Shown here in pieces: positions 1 to 50,866 of a DNA stretch of 64,000 bases (its first letter is position 1; every line of letters starts with the position of its first letter). The DNA comes from Candidatus Bathyarchaeia archaeon (GTDB lineage: Archaea > Thermoproteota > Bathyarchaeia > Bathyarchaeales > Bathycorpusculaceae). The stretch covers positions 320,001 to 384,000 of the forward strand of contig JAVYWL010000001.1 in assembly GCA_038727135.1 (NCBI GenBank), in the 5' to 3' direction. The notes beneath the pieces were generated by a model. It saw only the letters and a list, made by a program, of their open reading frames with translations, was not told where the DNA came from and made no database searches. The position numbers and the translations under genes were made by a program.

Positions 1-365
1 CAGTGTCCCCCAATAATCGCCATTTTTAAATCTCTTGCAGCCGCATCCATTTGAGAACATATAACCTCAATGGTTTTCCGGTCAGCCTCTTCTGGAAGTA
101 ATATACATGAAAGGAAGAAGGCTGGTTCCACACCGAAAGTGGCGACATCATTTGCATTAATGTTCACGGCAAGCCAACCAATACGCTCAACAGCACCAGT
201 AATGGGGTCCATTGAAGCCACCAGAGATTTCTCGCCTAAATCTATGACTGCACCATCATAGCCGGCTGAAGGCCCAATAATAACTTCATTACGTTTGTAA
301 CCTAAATTCTTGAAGACAACTTCTTCTAATATTTCTATGGGAACTTTTCCAAATGGCAGTTCCAA
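1..365 (-). CDS. AIR synthase (PurM/ThiL/HypE) family protein, N-terminal part; runs off the window edge
   Basis: Not in the ORF track. Manual translation from TTG at 365 gives MELPFGKVPIEILEEVVF...GPSAGYDGAV...SMDPITG...GWLAVNINANDVATFGVEP...IIGGH, the PurM-like N-terminal ATP-binding motifs. Confidence 0.88.
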   Translation of the reverse strand, partial: MELPFGKVPIEILEEVVFKNLGYKRNEVIIGPSAGYDGAVIDLGEKSLVASMDPITGAVERIGWLAVNINANDVATFGVEPAFFLSCILLPEEADRKTIEVICSQMDAAARDLKMAIIGGH

Positions 366-396
366 CTTTGATTCCTCAAGCAAGTATTTTCTGCTT

Positions 397-1149
397 TTAG
401 CTTTTAAGTTGTGGTAGAGCTTGCCTTACAATCCGAACAATAGGTGTAGCAACAATCACGCCTATAGTCATTTGCCCAATGTTTACAGGAACTTCTGCGA
501 AGGCGAAGACTCCGAGGAAAAATTGCTCGTAAAGGAAGTAGCCAAAAACCATCAAAAACCCTCCAAAGATGCACGCTATTATCGTTAAACTGAATTCAGG
601 TTCAGATATTAAGGCTAAGACCGTGATAATAATGAATGAGAGAACCCCTACCCCTAACCAAAACTCGACTGGGATAAAAAAGGTTGATGCGGGATTTTCT
701 ATGGAAACCATACCTGAATAAAGTTCGACAAAACCACTGTAATAGAGAAAGCCAATGAGGCTAATTAGCATTCCTATAAGTATGCCTATCTCAGTTGTGA
801 AAATCCTCCACTCCCTTTTGGTATGGGACTTGACGAAAACCTGCGCCTTTCGACTAAGAAAACCAGCTAGAAAACCCTCCAAAGCTTTAATTACCAAAGT
901 TGCTGGGGCATAATAGTAATAGCCGAGGAAAACGTCTGCGAGCATAGAGCCAACGCCACCAGCAAAGGCTCCTACAAAGGGTCCGAAAAGTAAGGCTGCT
1001 GTATAAACCATCGTCTCTCCGATGTTAAAGTAGCCTTTAGTGCTGGGTACATAAATTGTAAAGCTTATCGTTGCTATGCAAACAAGGGCTGTAAAAACAC
1101 CCGTAATACTTAATCGCCTTGCCAATTCTGCAGAAGATTTTGATAGCAT
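397..1149 (-). CDS. ECF transporter substrate-specific (S) component
   Basis: Multi-TM protein with P-x-T-x-GYFNIGE and GGVGSMLAD-x-FLGY...APATLVIK-x-LEG motifs typical of S components. Confidence 0.85.
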   Translation of the reverse strand: MLSKSSAELARRLSITGVFTALVCIATISFTIYVPSTKGYFNIGETMVYTAALLFGPFVGAFAGGVGSMLADVFLGYYYYAPATLVIKALEGFLAGFLSRKAQVFVKSHTKREWRIFTTEIGILIGMLISLIGFLYYSGFVELYSGMVSIENPASTFFIPVEFWLGVGVLSFIIITVLALISEPEFSLTIIACIFGGFLMVFGYFLYEQFFLGVFAFAEVPVNIGQMTIGVIVATPIVRIVRQALPQLKS

Positions 1150-1167: not shown

Positions 1168-1198
1168 ATAGTATAGCTACAACTATACTATTTTAAAT
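1168..1198 (-). promoter_or_regulatory. Palindromic operator (ATAGTATAG-N6-CTATACTAT) abutting the TATA box of the ECF gene
   Basis: Perfect 9-bp inverted repeat at 1168-1176 and 1183-1191; minus-strand ATTTAAAA box at 1191-1198; ATG at 1149. Confidence 0.7.
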
Positions 1199-1222
1199 TT
1201 ATGTTCCCGACTGCGTGGAAAA

Positions 1223-2626
1223 CTATAGGAGAAGTTTTAAGTTGTCGAACGCATGGAGGGCTTTCATTCCACGTTTTGTTATTTTAAAATACTTTCGCCC
1301 ATCTTTTTCATAACTTGAAATCAGCCCATTCTTTGAAAGTTCGGTTAAATGTTGGTAGATTGCCGCTCTTGTCATCATTTTTCCGAGTTTTTTCCATAAT
1401 TCATATCCGTAGGCATCCCCTTCACATAAAATTCTCAGTATTTTCTCTTTTGTGCTAAGCTCTAACCCAACCACAGCCGTTTTCCTTCTTTTGGTTAAGG
1501 CTTGGAGAATGTCTGTCGCCTTTAGCCCACTTCCAGTTATTAAGCATACAACTTTGTCCTTTTTGTCAATCACCCGTTCGTTCACAAGCTTTTTGAGCGC
1601 TGCGTAGGTTGCTGCGCTTGCTGGCTCGGCGAAGACTCCTTCATGCTTTGCAATTTCTTGTTCTGCTAAAAAAATTTCCTCGTCTGAAACTGATGTGGCG
1701 GTTCCTTTGGATTCTTTGATGGCTTTAAGGGCTAGTTTGCCATACCAAGGGTTTTTAACGAGGATAGCAAGCGCGCGGGTTGAAGGTTTTGTTTTGAGGG
1801 CTGGCTCCTCAAGGTTTTGCGTATACGCCCTAACTATTGGCGAGCATCCTTCGGCTTGAACGCCGACCATCTTTGGGAGAGAGTGTACTTCGCCTTTTAT
1901 TCCAAGCTCTTTGAAGCCTTTCCAAATGGCATATAGTGCTCCACCGCTTCCCATGGAGGCTATAAACCAGTCTGGAACACCCATCTGCTCGTAAACTTCG
2001 TAGGCTATGGTTTTTAGGGCTTCTATGGATAAGGGATTAAATTCGGCGGATCCTTGATACCAGTCCATTTCTTTGGCTAGCTCATCTGCTCTTTTCAGCG
2101 AATCGTCCACTATTTCCCCATACTCTTCGATCACGGCATCGTAGATGAGCATTTGGGCAAGTTTTCCCATATCCACATTTTTCGGCACTATAACATGACA
2201 TGTTAATCCAGACTTGGCGCAGTATGCGGCTAAAGAAGCCCCAAGGTTCCCATTTGTAGCGCACACAACCGACTTATACTCCAAATCTATGGCGTTAGAA
2301 ACAATTAGGGCGGCACATCTATCTCTAAAAGAGTTCGTTGGATTTCGCGTTTCATCCTTAAAGTATAAATTGTTTAGCCCAGCGTTTTTAGCAAGCCTTC
2401 TCGCCCTAATGAGAGGGGTACCCCCTTCCCCCATGGAGACAACATTTCTAACTTTTGGCAAGAATCTCTTGTAACGCCAAAAAATGAAGGGCCCAACGAA
2501 TTTCGCTTTTTTAAGGGTTTCATCATCGCATTTATACTCTAGGGGACTGTCACATTCCTCGCAACTATATTGCGGCGGGTAAGCTTCAAACCTTGTGCCG
2601 CATGCTGTGCATTCCAGATAGAACAT
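1223..2626 (-). CDS. Threonine synthase-like (fold-type II PLP) protein fused to a C-terminal PadR-like wHTH; catalytic Lys replaced by Arg
   Basis: N-terminal CxxC...CxxC, GEGGTPL, NPTNSFRDR (canonical NPTGSFKDR), EPASAA, ITGSGLK; C-terminal KILRIL...YGYELWK...AIYQHLTEL...GRKYFKIT..G winged helix. Confidence 0.85.
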   Translation of the reverse strand: MFYLECTACGTRFEAYPPQYSCEECDSPLEYKCDDETLKKAKFVGPFIFWRYKRFLPKVRNVVSMGEGGTPLIRARRLAKNAGLNNLYFKDETRNPTNSFRDRCAALIVSNAIDLEYKSVVCATNGNLGASLAAYCAKSGLTCHVIVPKNVDMGKLAQMLIYDAVIEEYGEIVDDSLKRADELAKEMDWYQGSAEFNPLSIEALKTIAYEVYEQMGVPDWFIASMGSGGALYAIWKGFKELGIKGEVHSLPKMVGVQAEGCSPIVRAYTQNLEEPALKTKPSTRALAILVKNPWYGKLALKAIKESKGTATSVSDEEIFLAEQEIAKHEGVFAEPASAATYAALKKLVNERVIDKKDKVVCLITGSGLKATDILQALTKRRKTAVVGLELSTKEKILRILCEGDAYGYELWKKLGKMMTRAAIYQHLTELSKNGLISSYEKDGRKYFKITKRGMKALHAFDNLKLLL

Positions 2627-2952: not shown

Positions 2953-4275
2953 CTACCTTTCTAAATGTTTGATGCAGTTCATAATATAACAGTTTCCATT
3001 GCCTGAATGCTCAGTCTTCGCCCAATGGTTGTTGTTTTTCTTTGTAATTTTTGAGAACAGAAGGTCGATGAGGGCTTTTGTACATATGGGAATGTTATAT
3101 AAAAGTGTGAAGAGAAGTAGGGGGATAAGCCACTGCGCCCTCTTTCTGCCGTCAAGATAAGCCCCAACACCAATCTCATAAAATGGGGCAAAGTTCCCAA
3201 TAGAACTGTAGAGGGCGATGGAGGATGCCGCCCAAAATGAGGTGGACCATTGTGAAAATTTCAGAAAGGTTAGCGCCGCCCCAATTATCCATGAAAGAAG
3301 GACGACAACGGGGAGAAAATAGACGCCGAGCAGAAGTAGGCCGTCAATTTTCTCTTTAAATCCGAGCTCTCTGCTTTTTAGAACTTTAAGCCAATGTTTA
3401 AAGGCGCATTGCATATGCCCTTTTGCCCACCTGTATCGTTGTCTCCAGTAGGCTCGCCAGTTTTCAACAGCCTCTTCGTAGCATTCCGCATCGCCAACAT
3501 ACTTAACCTTGTAACCAGCGAGGTAAACACGGAAAGTTAGATCGGTGTCCTCTGCCAAAATATTTTCGTCCCATCCGCCAAGAGATTCCAAAAGAACGCG
3601 CCTAAAACCTCCGACAGTTCCTCCGAATTGAGTTATTAAGCCGAGGGTGTCGCGGGCTTCTTGGTCGACGCGGTATCCGCCTATCCTTTCAAGGGCAACA
3701 AGCCTCGTGACAATGTTCTGCGGCTCGTTGAGCACAACAACCCTGCCTTGAACGGCTCCAACTTTTGGGTCCTTAAACTCTTTCACAAGTTTTTCCACAA
3801 TGTCCCTTTGCGGATAGTAGTCAGCATCAAAACACAATACTATTTCGCCATCAGCCAGCTTCATTCCAGCGTTTAAGGCGGAAGCCTTCCCGCGACCACC
3901 CTCTTCTTTATCTCTTCTCACAACAAGTATGTAAGGATGAATCCTCGAATACTGTTCTGCTATTATTCCAGTTCTATCTGTTGAAGCGTCATCTATCACT
4001 ATTATCTGCAACTTATCCTTAGGATATGTCAGCTCCGTCATTCTTTGGAGAATCCGTCCAATAACACGTTCTTCGTTGCGGGCAGGTATCAAAATTGACA
4101 CTTTTGGTTGATAATATGGGTCCGCAATTTCAGCTGCATTAATGCTTTCTCCATTTCTCTTTGATTTCTTGGCAACTGTAAATGTGAAAATGTAGTGGCG
4201 AACAAGGTATGCCACCATCAAAGCTGTCGACAAAATAAGTAATGCCTCTAAAATTTCTGTTATCAAGTTTTCCAC
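2953..4275 (-). CDS. Processive GT2 glycosyltransferase (cellulose synthase/PgaC-like)
   Basis: IPARNE, DDASTD, GKASALN, FDAD, AEDTD and QRYRW (D,D,D,QxxRW) motifs plus TM helices. Confidence 0.9.
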   Translation of the reverse strand: MENLITEILEALLILSTALMVAYLVRHYIFTFTVAKKSKRNGESINAAEIADPYYQPKVSILIPARNEERVIGRILQRMTELTYPKDKLQIIVIDDASTDRTGIIAEQYSRIHPYILVVRRDKEEGGRGKASALNAGMKLADGEIVLCFDADYYPQRDIVEKLVKEFKDPKVGAVQGRVVVLNEPQNIVTRLVALERIGGYRVDQEARDTLGLITQFGGTVGGFRRVLLESLGGWDENILAEDTDLTFRVYLAGYKVKYVGDAECYEEAVENWRAYWRQRYRWAKGHMQCAFKHWLKVLKSRELGFKEKIDGLLLLGVYFLPVVVLLSWIIGAALTFLKFSQWSTSFWAASSIALYSSIGNFAPFYEIGVGAYLDGRKRAQWLIPLLLFTLLYNIPICTKALIDLLFSKITKKNNNHWAKTEHSGNGNCYIMNCIKHLER

Positions 4276-4658
4276 CGTTTTCTCTCTCTTGTTTCAGTTA
4301 AAAAGGTCAGACTTGTGGACCAAAACGCTACAACCCACAAAACATTCAACATCGGACTTAAAATAATGTACAAAGTGTTAAGCACTACATCCATATGCAC
4401 AATAGCTAAGTGGACGAACGAATAGAAGATGGTGCTCCAAATGAAGCTTAGGATGTTGCCCAACAAAAGTATTGCCGCTTTTCTTTCCAAGGAACTTTTT
4501 AATGGTATAAGAATTAGCAGAAACAGAAAGTTAAATGTAAGCAGTGTTTGAGTTGTCTCCTCAGGTATTGGAAGGAGCCCATAAAGAGTTAGGAGGATAA
4601 AAGCCGCAATAAATGCAGAGCAGAAAATCAGTGTTTTCAAGCTCTCCAATCTCCGCAT
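4263..4658 (-). CDS. Hypothetical 4-TM membrane protein
   Basis: Hydrophobic 131-aa ORF overlapping the GT2 start. Confidence 0.7.
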   Translation of the reverse strand: MRRLESLKTLIFCSAFIAAFILLTLYGLLPIPEETTQTLLTFNFLFLLILIPLKSSLERKAAILLLGNILSFIWSTIFYSFVHLAIVHMDVVLNTLYIILSPMLNVLWVVAFWSTSLTFLTETRERKRWKT

Positions 4659-49969: not shown

Positions 49970-50866
49970 CTCCTCTAAGCGTGGAAGCCCGATGCGAGCA
50001 CCCATCCTCATTATGCATCGAGAAGCAACAAAATTGCCCAGTTTTGCACATTCTTTTAGGCTTTTATTATTCAACAAGCCGTAAAGGAAGCCAGCACAGA
50101 AGGCGTCTCCAGCACCTGTCGTGTCGACAATCTGGACTTTAAAAGCTTCCACGTGATGGCTTTCCTTTCCATCTGTGACATAGCATCCATCGCCGCCGAG
50201 CTTAACCGCAACAATTTTAACTCCAAGCTCCAAGAGTTGTTTAGCGCCCTCAACATAGTCTTCCGCACCTGTTAGGAGTGCTAGTTCCCGCGAGTTTGGC
50301 ATGAAAACAAAGCTTCTCTCCAAAATTGGTTTTAGGGCTTCCATGCCTTTTCTTGCATAAAGTTCGCCCGGGTCCATGCTTATTTTAACATCTTCTGGCA
50401 GGGTTTCCACAAGCTTTTTCTGGGTTTCAAAGGATTTCTCGCCCACAAAAGAGGTTAAATGAAGGAATTTCGCTTGACTGGCATACCCTTTATCTACTTC
50501 TTCGAAGCTTATGGTGTCGTTTACGCCTGGGTCCACATATAGGGCTCTCTCGCCTCTCTCGTCCACAAAGCCCATGACTGTTCCGCTGCGTCCATCCTTT
50601 GCCCTTATAATGCCCCTTGTATTTACGCCTTCTCTGCGAAAGTCTTCTAGGAGCATTCTGCCTTCTCTGTCGTTGGCAACCTTCCCAATAAAGCCCACTT
50701 TGCAGCCAAGCCGAGCTAAGCCAACAACGGTATTGGCAGCTGAGCCTCCGCAAGCCTCCTCAAAGCCTTTAATGAAGCCTTCCTCTTCTGGTCCTGCTAT
50801 CTTGTTAACCTTGTAGAGTTTATCCACGTTTAGGGCGCCGAAGCCTATAACGTCAAAGCGTTTCAT
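49952..50866 (-). CDS. PfkB-family carbohydrate/nucleoside kinase
   Basis: [25 protein letters not shown]. Confidence 0.92.

Follow-up and report, generated by a model that had tools for sequence, protein, structure and literature searches.

Which function can be assigned to a protein that closely resembles threonine synthase (ThrC), but has lost the catalytic lysine and carries a winged helix at its C-terminus? This question is raised by a gene on the reverse strand of a 64,000-nucleotide stretch of DNA from the hot-spring organism Candidatus Bathyarchaeia archaeon (contig JAVYWL010000001.1 of assembly GCA_038727135.1, positions 320,001 to 384,000), which as a whole is referred to as the window in the following. 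The encoded protein is nearly certainly a non-catalytic regulator that has been misnamed threonine synthase. It is rather probable that this regulator senses vitamin B6 via its ThrC-derived, lysine-less domain and controls a neighbouring gene for B6 uptake. The best reading of this arrangement is an archaeal functional analogue of the bacterial regulator PdxR, with B6 being suggested as the ligand from genomic context only.

Architecture of the regulator

The original prediction, which had been made from the DNA sequence alone, described the open reading frame (ORF) 1223-2626(-) as a ThrC homolog fused to a PadR-like winged helix. This description is confirmed by matches to the Pfam families PALP and PadR and by an AlphaFold2 model. 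The PadR domain (PF03551) covers residues 396-458 with an E value of 1.5e-13 and 51 bits vs. a cut-off of 27. GntR and aminotransferase domains were not found in a Pfam scan of the protein, which has PALP and a C-terminal PadR domain instead. The AlphaFold2 model, which was built with 54 family members and reaches a mean predicted local distance difference test score (pLDDT) of 92.5, consists of a ThrC-like core, a disordered linker, and a C-terminal part in which residues 392-466 form three helices, a two-stranded wing, and a final helix. All top matches of this model in Foldseek are ThrC structures. A feature that was absent from the original prediction is an N-terminal zinc ribbon with the four cysteines C6, C9, C22, and C25, each of which is invariant or at least 90% conserved among the 54 family members.

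ThrC structures in the PDB are matched by the regulator with E values down to 9.7e-65. With the ThrC proteins 2zsj, 1uim, and 6cgq, it shares 35-39% sequence identity, TM-scores of 0.84-0.88 on target, the cofactor-holding positions (see below), and, according to the model, a dimer-type interface. It differs from them by the lack of the Schiff-base lysine, by the additional PadR domain and zinc ribbon, and by its genomic partners, which are B6 genes and not threonine genes. A homodimer model of the regulator scored 0.83 vs. 0.00 for the best control, a pass that may reflect only its likeness to ThrC, because ThrC dimers have already been solved and may alone explain it. The homodimer runs had at least 68% of contacts in common, with a partner pLDDT of at least 86. 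In the calibration, 20 of 30 solved pairs and 1 of 23 single chains attained this score.

Contigs nearly identical to positions 1100-2700 of the window were present, at least partially, in 20 of the 22 listed hot-spring metagenome runs, which belong to 10 studies.

Loss of the Schiff-base lysine

Fold-type II enzymes dependent on pyridoxal 5'-phosphate (PLP) require the Schiff-base lysine for catalysis. In HMMER alignments to the ThrC chains 2zsj, 2d1f, 6cgq, and 1uim, the motif NPTNSFRDR of the regulator pairs with NPTGSFKDR, and R101 falls on the Schiff-base lysine in all four solved chains, corresponding to K61 of 1uim as counted on the alignment. In the same alignments, ATNGN (residues 123-127) pairs with ASTGN, and SMGSGG (residues 224-229) pairs with the phosphate loop PVGNAG. 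The codon AGA in place of the lysine of SFKDR, the replacement of ASTGN by ATNGN, and the retention of a glycine-rich MGSGG loop, all of which had been claimed before, were found as described.

The arginine is neither a private mutation nor a sequencing error. Among the matches listed, 120 homologs with 67-99% identity to the regulator, mostly from metagenome bins of Bathyarchaeia, have R (117), S (2), or M (1) at this position, and none has K. In addition, Logan contigs from four runs of four studies span the codon, and no difference at this site is among the 40 of 95 differences listed.

For a wider view of the family, the best 150 matches among 1.84 billion representatives of 50% clusters were aligned with the query. 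A residue other than lysine is present in 72 of the 74 winged-helix fusions (L 19, R 17, I 14, V 5, T 5, M 4, F 3, and S, Y, A, N, and H once each), whereas lysine is present in all 66 unfused full-length relatives. Lysine is also kept in six further relatives of 610-633 amino acids, which have a different C-terminal extension; the remaining five sequences are fragments and were excluded from these classes. In a FastTree phylogeny of the PLP core (146 rows, each with at least 280 core residues, lysine column masked; unrooted and with local support only), the fusion label is explained by one change and the K/non-K label by three. The tree contains an R clade of 25 rows, to which the query belongs, and a hydrophobic clade with 48 rows and a single outlier. 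Co-segregation of arginine with the winged-helix fusion, which the original prediction had proposed to test, therefore applies to the frequent loss of lysine (72 of 74 vs. none of 66), but not to arginine itself, which is restricted to one clade, the other clade having L, I, V, M, T, or F, and a minority of fusions keeps lysine.

The six relatives with the other extension (P0190, P0255, P0256, P0260, P0262, and P0266) form one clade with a support of 98, and their extension comprises about 150-200 amino acids.

The pocket around the lost lysine has been kept. In the numbering of 1uim, we take N87 to be the asparagine before the ring hydroxyl and T317 to be the threonine at the ring nitrogen, with the glycine residues of the phosphate loop presumably holding the cofactor as well. 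The equivalent of N87 is present in 65 of the 72 lysine-less fusions, the two glycines in 68 and 72, and the equivalent of T317 in 69, so that the lysine-less fusions are as conserved as the enzymes at the cofactor-holding positions. A kept pocket combined with chemically unrelated substitutes for the catalytic residue would be expected of a binding domain that does not catalyse a reaction.

A conserved S-component neighbour

The gene downstream of the regulator gene encodes a 250-amino-acid membrane protein, which belongs to the S-components of energy-coupling factor (ECF) transporters; it is located on the same strand at a distance of 73 bases. Its association with the regulator was followed in a survey of 80 loci that were retrieved with the family profile, 35 of which contain a full-length fusion and 45 a lysine-type ThrC. 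The 35 fusion loci belong to Bathyarchaeia, Jord-, Prometh-, Hermod-, and Thorarchaeota, Thermococci, Nitrososphaerota, Methanomethylicota, and Desulfurococcales. A homolog of the S-component adjoins the fusion in 26 of them, vs. none of the 45 loci with lysine-type ThrC; 25 of these cases were detected by tblastn or ORF clustering, and one (L014) by Pfam. The 26 loci span Bathyarchaeia, Asgard groups, Nitrososphaerota, and Desulfurococcales, and the S-component gene is found downstream on the same strand, divergently upstream, or convergent to the fusion gene. No other neighbour of the fusion is nearly as frequent; the next in rank is a gene related to AIR synthases, which adjoins the regulator-carrier pair in 9 of the 35 loci including one of Nitrosopumilales.

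All 22 of 22 regulator-adjacent S-components match PF07155. At E values up to 10, the S-component matches a single chain in the PDB, 4HZU_S (E 1.2e-9), which is also the only match of a profile made from the 22 adjacent S-components (E 7.7e-22), with both halves being matched. An NCBIfam scan of the S-component gave only weak matches, all below the cut-off. According to excerpts of PMC4860826, 4HZU is HmpT/PdxU2 of Lactobacillus brevis, and the substrate extracted from it was identified as pyridoxamine. PdxU and PdxU2/HmpT, both of which belong to PF07155, are listed among only three characterised prokaryotic B6 carriers in the parts of PMC9997740 used here. Of the six HmpT pocket residues named in the excerpts of PMC4860826, E41, Y120, N140, and Q143 are kept in the archaeal S-components. 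HmpT/PdxU2 is thus their only solved relative, sharing the Pfam family and four pocket residues, whereas the archaeal proteins are longer (about 250 amino acids, with about 70 extra residues between the two matched parts) and differ at the two other pocket positions (see below); a B6 vitamer is their predicted substrate.

In two loci of Thermococci (L032 and L035), a fusion with arginine at the lysine position has no adjacent S-component. It is located between an FttA/aCPSF1-like gene and a 107-amino-acid ORF, which is followed by a gene for ribose-5-phosphate isomerase A, and a member of the ThrC/PALP ORF cluster (307-340 amino acids) is encoded downstream on the other strand.

Vitamin B6 genes in fusion-bearing genomes

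The genome to which the window belongs (1.55 Mb, 7 contigs, 94.7% complete) contains no match to PdxS (PF01680) or PdxJ (PF03740), whereas PdxS was found in four of four archaeal control genomes. This genome also has no match to RibH but encodes four PF07155 paralogs and one EcfT, which suggests several vitamin auxotrophies that are served by one ECF module.

Since the 31 closest genomes gave no discrimination, the sample was widened to 151 genomes of the phylum that are at least 90% complete. These were searched with PF01680 and with the NCBIfam model NF004170, with fusion carriers being defined by an NF004170 match that extends at least to model position 430 at an E value of no more than 1e-75. 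Of the 39 fusion carriers, 5 have PdxS, vs. 65 of the 112 non-carriers, which corresponds to an odds ratio of 0.11 and a Fisher p value of 6e-7, values that ignore relatedness and overstate the case. In three of the five carriers with PdxS, the fusion directly adjoins pdxS. Outside the phylum, PdxS was not found in any of five genomes with a regulator-carrier pair, the completeness of which is not given. It was also not found in four of five genomes in which the fusion has no adjacent carrier, again with completeness not given.

The three genomes in which the fusion adjoins pdxS (G084, G099, and G128) belong to one genus, and in all of them the fusion gene, which encodes leucine at the lysine position, is oriented divergently next to pdxS-pdxT (L095-L097). 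In L095, the fusion is a PALP+PadR protein of 469 amino acids; the adjacent pdxS scores 337 bits, and pdxT, with 185 bits, comes next. In a fourth genome of the genus (G060; L098, C8:33000-39500), the regulator gene has been kept, but pdxS-pdxT, which in L095 lie between the regulator gene and a flanking transaldolase gene, are absent. Apparently, the target was lost here and the regulator was retained.

With respect to further possible B6 genes, positions 50036-50389(-) of the window show a weak match to Phos_pyr_kin (PF08543, 31.4 bits) within a frame of 307 amino acids. This is a possible PfkB-type kinase, which could phosphorylate B6 vitamers. The strong PF08543 match of the genome is located beside ThiC.

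Candidate operators

A 22-bp palindrome, which is a candidate operator, is located downstream of a TATA-like stretch and upstream of the ATG with which the S-component gene starts. With a weight matrix derived from 13 Bathyarchaeial sites, this palindrome is the sole strong site of the genome (33.6 bits), the next best reaching 11.4 bits. Further strong sites were not found in the 1.55-Mb genome, in which six sites have at least 10 bits and five of these at most 11.4. Because there is one strong site in the genome, the regulator looks local and dedicated. Across the surveyed loci, 16 of 24 S-component genes vs. 12 of 252 other ORFs have an upstream palindrome in which 9 or more of the 10 arm positions match. 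The palindromes before S-component genes vary by lineage, with one form in Bathyarchaeia, a second form with two tandem copies in loci of Prometh- and Hermodarchaeota, and a third form in loci of Thorarchaeota as well as in L033 and L034. Their position is tied to the S-component gene rather than to the regulator gene's 3' end, as can be seen in L017, where the two genes are 3 kb apart, and in convergent loci, where the palindrome is found on the far side. The position just downstream of the TATA-like stretch suggests repression. With fair confidence, the regulator is predicted to control the adjacent PdxU2-like gene through the palindrome.

A related element accompanies pdxS. The spacer between the fusion gene and pdxS, which is 61 bp long in L095 and L097, contains a self-complementary core of 12 nt, CCTATATATAGG, and, 7 nt behind it, an A/T-rich box. 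The S-component genes of L030, L031, and L033, the regulators of which also belong to the hydrophobic clade, are preceded by both parts in the same arrangement. The core CCTATATATAGG occurs once in each of four genomes of the pdxS-adjacent genus, always at the regulator gene, and has been kept upstream of the regulator gene in G060. Because of this single copy per genome and its retention in G060, it is not a generic promoter element.

A second exact copy of the core is present in the Thorarchaeote genome G032 (L101:2995-3006, on G032:C7), about 200 bp upstream of a TrpB2-like gene (3204-4622). It was not counted as a member of the regulon, as the second half of the motif is absent and about 0.2 copies would be expected by chance.

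A proposed mechanism and its bacterial counterparts

In the proposed mechanism, the ThrC-like domain, with the catalytic lysine lost and the cofactor-holding residues kept, would serve as a reversible sensor of B6, most likely of PLP itself. The regulator would dimerise through this domain, and the flexible linkers would present the two PadR-type winged helices to the palindrome at 1169-1190. Each pocket would hold PLP non-covalently, and because no covalent bond is formed, pocket occupancy would follow the free PLP pool. Occupancy would alter the seating of the winged helices on the palindrome and would thereby set the transcription of the B6 carrier gene; in prototrophic relatives, the transcription of pdxS-pdxT would be set instead. 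As no PLP synthase was found in the organism, B6 uptake would be adjusted by the regulator to the PLP level of the cell, most likely through repression at high PLP. What we infer in this scheme is the binding to DNA, the identity of the ligand, and the direction of the regulation. In outline, bacterial PdxR works in this way, too, although with different parts.

Regulators of the MocR/GabR type, including PdxR, are likewise composed of an enzyme-derived PLP-fold domain, a linker, and a winged helix. In MocR proteins, however, the winged helix is N-terminal and of the GntR type, and the sensor is a fold-type I aminotransferase domain, whereas the archaeal regulator has a C-terminal PadR winged helix, a fold-type II ThrC-like domain, and a zinc ribbon, and is mostly lysine-less. 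MocR proteins hold PLP on their retained lysine. Classical PadR proteins are small, with about 110-180 amino acids, and lack an enzyme-like sensor domain; the regulator resembles them in its PadR match above the cut-off, in the winged helix followed by a C-terminal helix, and in its palindromic candidate operators. The available excerpts of PMC5320631 state that characterised MocR proteins require PLP, that MocR is 'not present in Archaea', and that PdxR regulons consist of pdxST, pdxK, and the carrier pdxU, with the pdxR gene often being divergent from pdxST. The archaeal fusion has similar partners, namely a PdxU2-like carrier (26 of 35 loci) or divergent pdxS-pdxT (three genomes of one genus), a likeness of context alone. 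The balance of evidence leans slightly towards the broader view that Archaea, having no MocR/PdxR, built their own B6 regulator from a PadR domain and a ThrC-like fold-type II domain that has given up the Schiff-base lysine in most lineages; this regulator would respond to free PLP non-covalently and would control uptake in auxotrophs and pdxS-pdxT in prototrophs.

Several observations weigh against a B6-sensing regulator of this kind. In the window, the regulator gene itself was not found to be preceded by a palindrome, and an adjacent S-component was not found in 9 of the 35 fusion loci; of these nine, two break off within 150 bp past the gene and two lack an upstream flank. In the order to which the organism belongs, PdxS is present in 2 and the fusion in 22 of the 31 closest genomes, so that PdxS is missing regardless of the fusion. 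Because of this, the phylum-wide association may be largely phylogenetic. Lysine is kept in two of the 74 fusion representatives (P0122 and P0127) and in 6 of the 35 fusion loci (L019, L020, L024, L027, L028, and L029). As the latter have the same neighbour and palindromes, loss of lysine is not required for the regulatory architecture. Either the loss is a later step that was taken often, or it can be reversed, since an AGR codon differs from an AAR codon by a single base. PadR-family repressors usually leave the DNA upon ligand binding, a logic that is ill-suited to repression of uptake by PLP and makes the sign of regulation less certain. At the level of the carrier, two pocket residues of HmpT are replaced in the archaeal S-components by nearly invariant residues (H84 by K and Q87 by E), PF07155 also includes riboflavin carriers while the genome has no match to RibH, and HmpT was first predicted to carry hydroxymethylpyrimidine (excerpts of PMC4860826).

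Alternative ligands and the threonine synthase annotation

An improbable but not far-fetched alternative is that the protein regulates the neighbouring transporter gene in response to an amino acid or phospho-amino acid such as threonine, homoserine, or O-phosphohomoserine, which might be bound on its own or in a stable Schiff base with PLP that is held non-covalently, like GABA on GabR. The descent of the sensor from ThrC and the conservation of the substrate-side loop 123-127 as xxGN would fit such a ligand. The conserved partners are, however, the PdxU2-like carrier and pdxS-pdxT, and not amino acid genes. Moreover, the residues T88, N154, S155, and R160 of 1uim, which we take to bind the substrate phosphate, correspond to L128, A194, E195, and S200 in the regulator. 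This is a weak point, as lysine-type relatives vary at these positions, too (R in 20 of 66), and for this reason these residues were dropped as a sign of lost ThrC function. Bacterial regulators that need both PLP and an amino acid effector are known (excerpts of PMC5320631), which again would be compatible with an amino acid as ligand.

Less likely still is a regulator for the uptake of another aromatic vitamin or precursor, either hydroxymethylpyrimidine for thiamine salvage or riboflavin. Such a role would agree with the first naming of HmpT, with PF07155 being named after riboflavin carriers in a genome without RibH, and with the ThiL/HypE-like, AIR-synthase-related gene that follows the S-component gene. 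The protein encoded by this gene is, however, below every NCBIfam cut-off (HypE 122.7 vs. 251.6, ThiL 90 vs. 184.15). The genome encodes ThiC (658 bits) next to a ThiD-like kinase, so that the pyrimidine would be made de novo, which argues against a need for hydroxymethylpyrimidine uptake. With regard to riboflavin, no RibU structure was matched by the S-component or by the 22-member profile even at E values up to 10, and a different PF07155 paralog (L091) has RibU as its only, weak NCBIfam match (26.5 bits). The adjacency to pdxS-pdxT and the scarcity of PdxS in fusion carriers also point to B6.

A working threonine synthase or other fold-type II enzyme with a DNA-binding tail, as might be concluded from the TIGR00260 (thrC) score of 216.7 vs. 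a cut-off of 167.1, the nearly reached cut-off of NF004170 (400.7 vs. 421), the names in public records, and the kept cofactor-holding residues, can practically be dismissed, as the Schiff-base lysine is replaced family-wide by unrelated residues (R, L, I, V, M, F, T, S, Y, A, N, and H) and two lysine-bearing paralogs cover ThrC in the same genome. These paralogs are among six PALP genes of the genome. One of them (L003:1309-2415) scores 449.8 with NF005035 vs. a cut-off of 301, and the other (L002:1249-2514) scores 209.7 with TIGR00260; a canonical thrC elsewhere in the genome, as the original prediction had proposed to look for, thus exists. Its warning that annotation pipelines would misassign the gene as thrC has proved justified, too: close homologs among the matches listed are labelled 'threonine synthase' in public records, TIGR00260 is passed, and NF004170 (PRK05638), an NCBIfam 'equivalog' named threonine synthase, aligns with the regulator over model positions 2-441 of 442, which include the winged helix. 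The cut-off of NF004170 is passed by 4 of 31 relatives, and its name does not fit a lysine-less family. The view of the protein as a pseudo-enzyme acting as ligand sensor or transcription factor is supported, at the level of sequence, by the loss of lysine tracking the fusion and by the ThrC paralogs elsewhere.

Two observations concern other paralogs. A further gene of the same genome (L004:655-2379(+), on G000:C4) encodes a protein of 574 amino acids with an N-terminal ParB/SerK-like part (SerK 63 bits, below the cut-off) and a lysine-bearing CysK/CysM-like PLP domain. In four Bathyarchaeial loci, a second ThrC-family paralog of about 420 amino acids, which is apparently unfused, lies 0.1-0.8 kb upstream of the fusion and is encoded on the opposite strand (L012:155-1432(-), L015:4058-5314(-), L016:144-1406(-), and L017:3876-5135(-)).

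Significance

PLP-fold transcription factors are already known, and the ThrC-like/PadR variant appears to be new to the literature searched. This search yielded neither a ThrC-winged-helix regulator nor a B6 regulator of Archaea; it did not cover Kaur and Subramanian 2017 on the ThrC zinc ribbon, which may describe the architecture. A widespread archaeal family carries the name 'threonine synthase' while most of its members lack the catalytic lysine, and metabolic reconstructions that count these members as ThrC are wrong. The regulator is a concrete and testable candidate for the regulation of vitamin B6 in Archaea, and its neighbour is nominated as B6 carrier for apparent B6 auxotrophs, which comprise most of the Bathyarchaeia and the Asgard genomes that were searched. 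Such apparent auxotrophy bears on the dependence on community partners and on culturing attempts. With members both with and without lysine, this one regulator family also provides a natural experiment on the role of the Schiff-base lysine. If the proposed function is true, Archaea would have their first described B6 regulon, with an evolution convergent to that of bacterial PdxR, and the regulator would act in B6-auxotrophic Bathyarchaeia, in Asgard archaea, and in others.

Features of the locus and the downstream gene

The coordinates of all features in the window are compiled in Table 1. The gene at the start of the window belongs to the AIR-synthase family, which consists of ATP-using enzymes; that its product might act on the imported vitamer is speculation.

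Table 1. Features at the regulator locus, with positions in the window
Feature	Position	Strand	Remarks
Regulator gene, ThrC-like/winged-helix protein, 467 aa	1223..2626	-	Single ORF; stop codon 1223-1225 included
N-terminal zinc-ribbon Cys cluster (C6, C9, C22, C25)	2552..2611	-	Weak zinc-ribbon Pfam matches
PALP fold-type II PLP domain, ThrC-like, residues 63-365	1532..2440	-	Pfam E 4.8e-77; taken as sensor
Arg101 codon AGA at the Schiff-base Lys position	2324..2326	-	Read from the sequence and ThrC alignments
Flexible linker, residues 369-389	1460..1522	-	pLDDT <50 at 369-371 and 373-389
PadR-type winged helix-turn-helix and C-terminal helix, residues 392-467	1226..1453	-	Pfam PadR and model
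22-bp palindrome (10-bp arms, 2-bp centre), candidate operator	1169..1190	.	Before the S-component gene
A/T-rich TATA-like stretch, putative promoter of the S-component gene	1191..1202	-	Directly upstream of the palindrome
ECF S-component gene, PdxU2/HmpT type, putative target	397..1149	-	PF07155, 102.5 bits
AIR-synthase-related gene, start	3..383	-	Full gene L087:5346-6383(-), 345 aa; 13 bp after the S-component gene; possibly same operon

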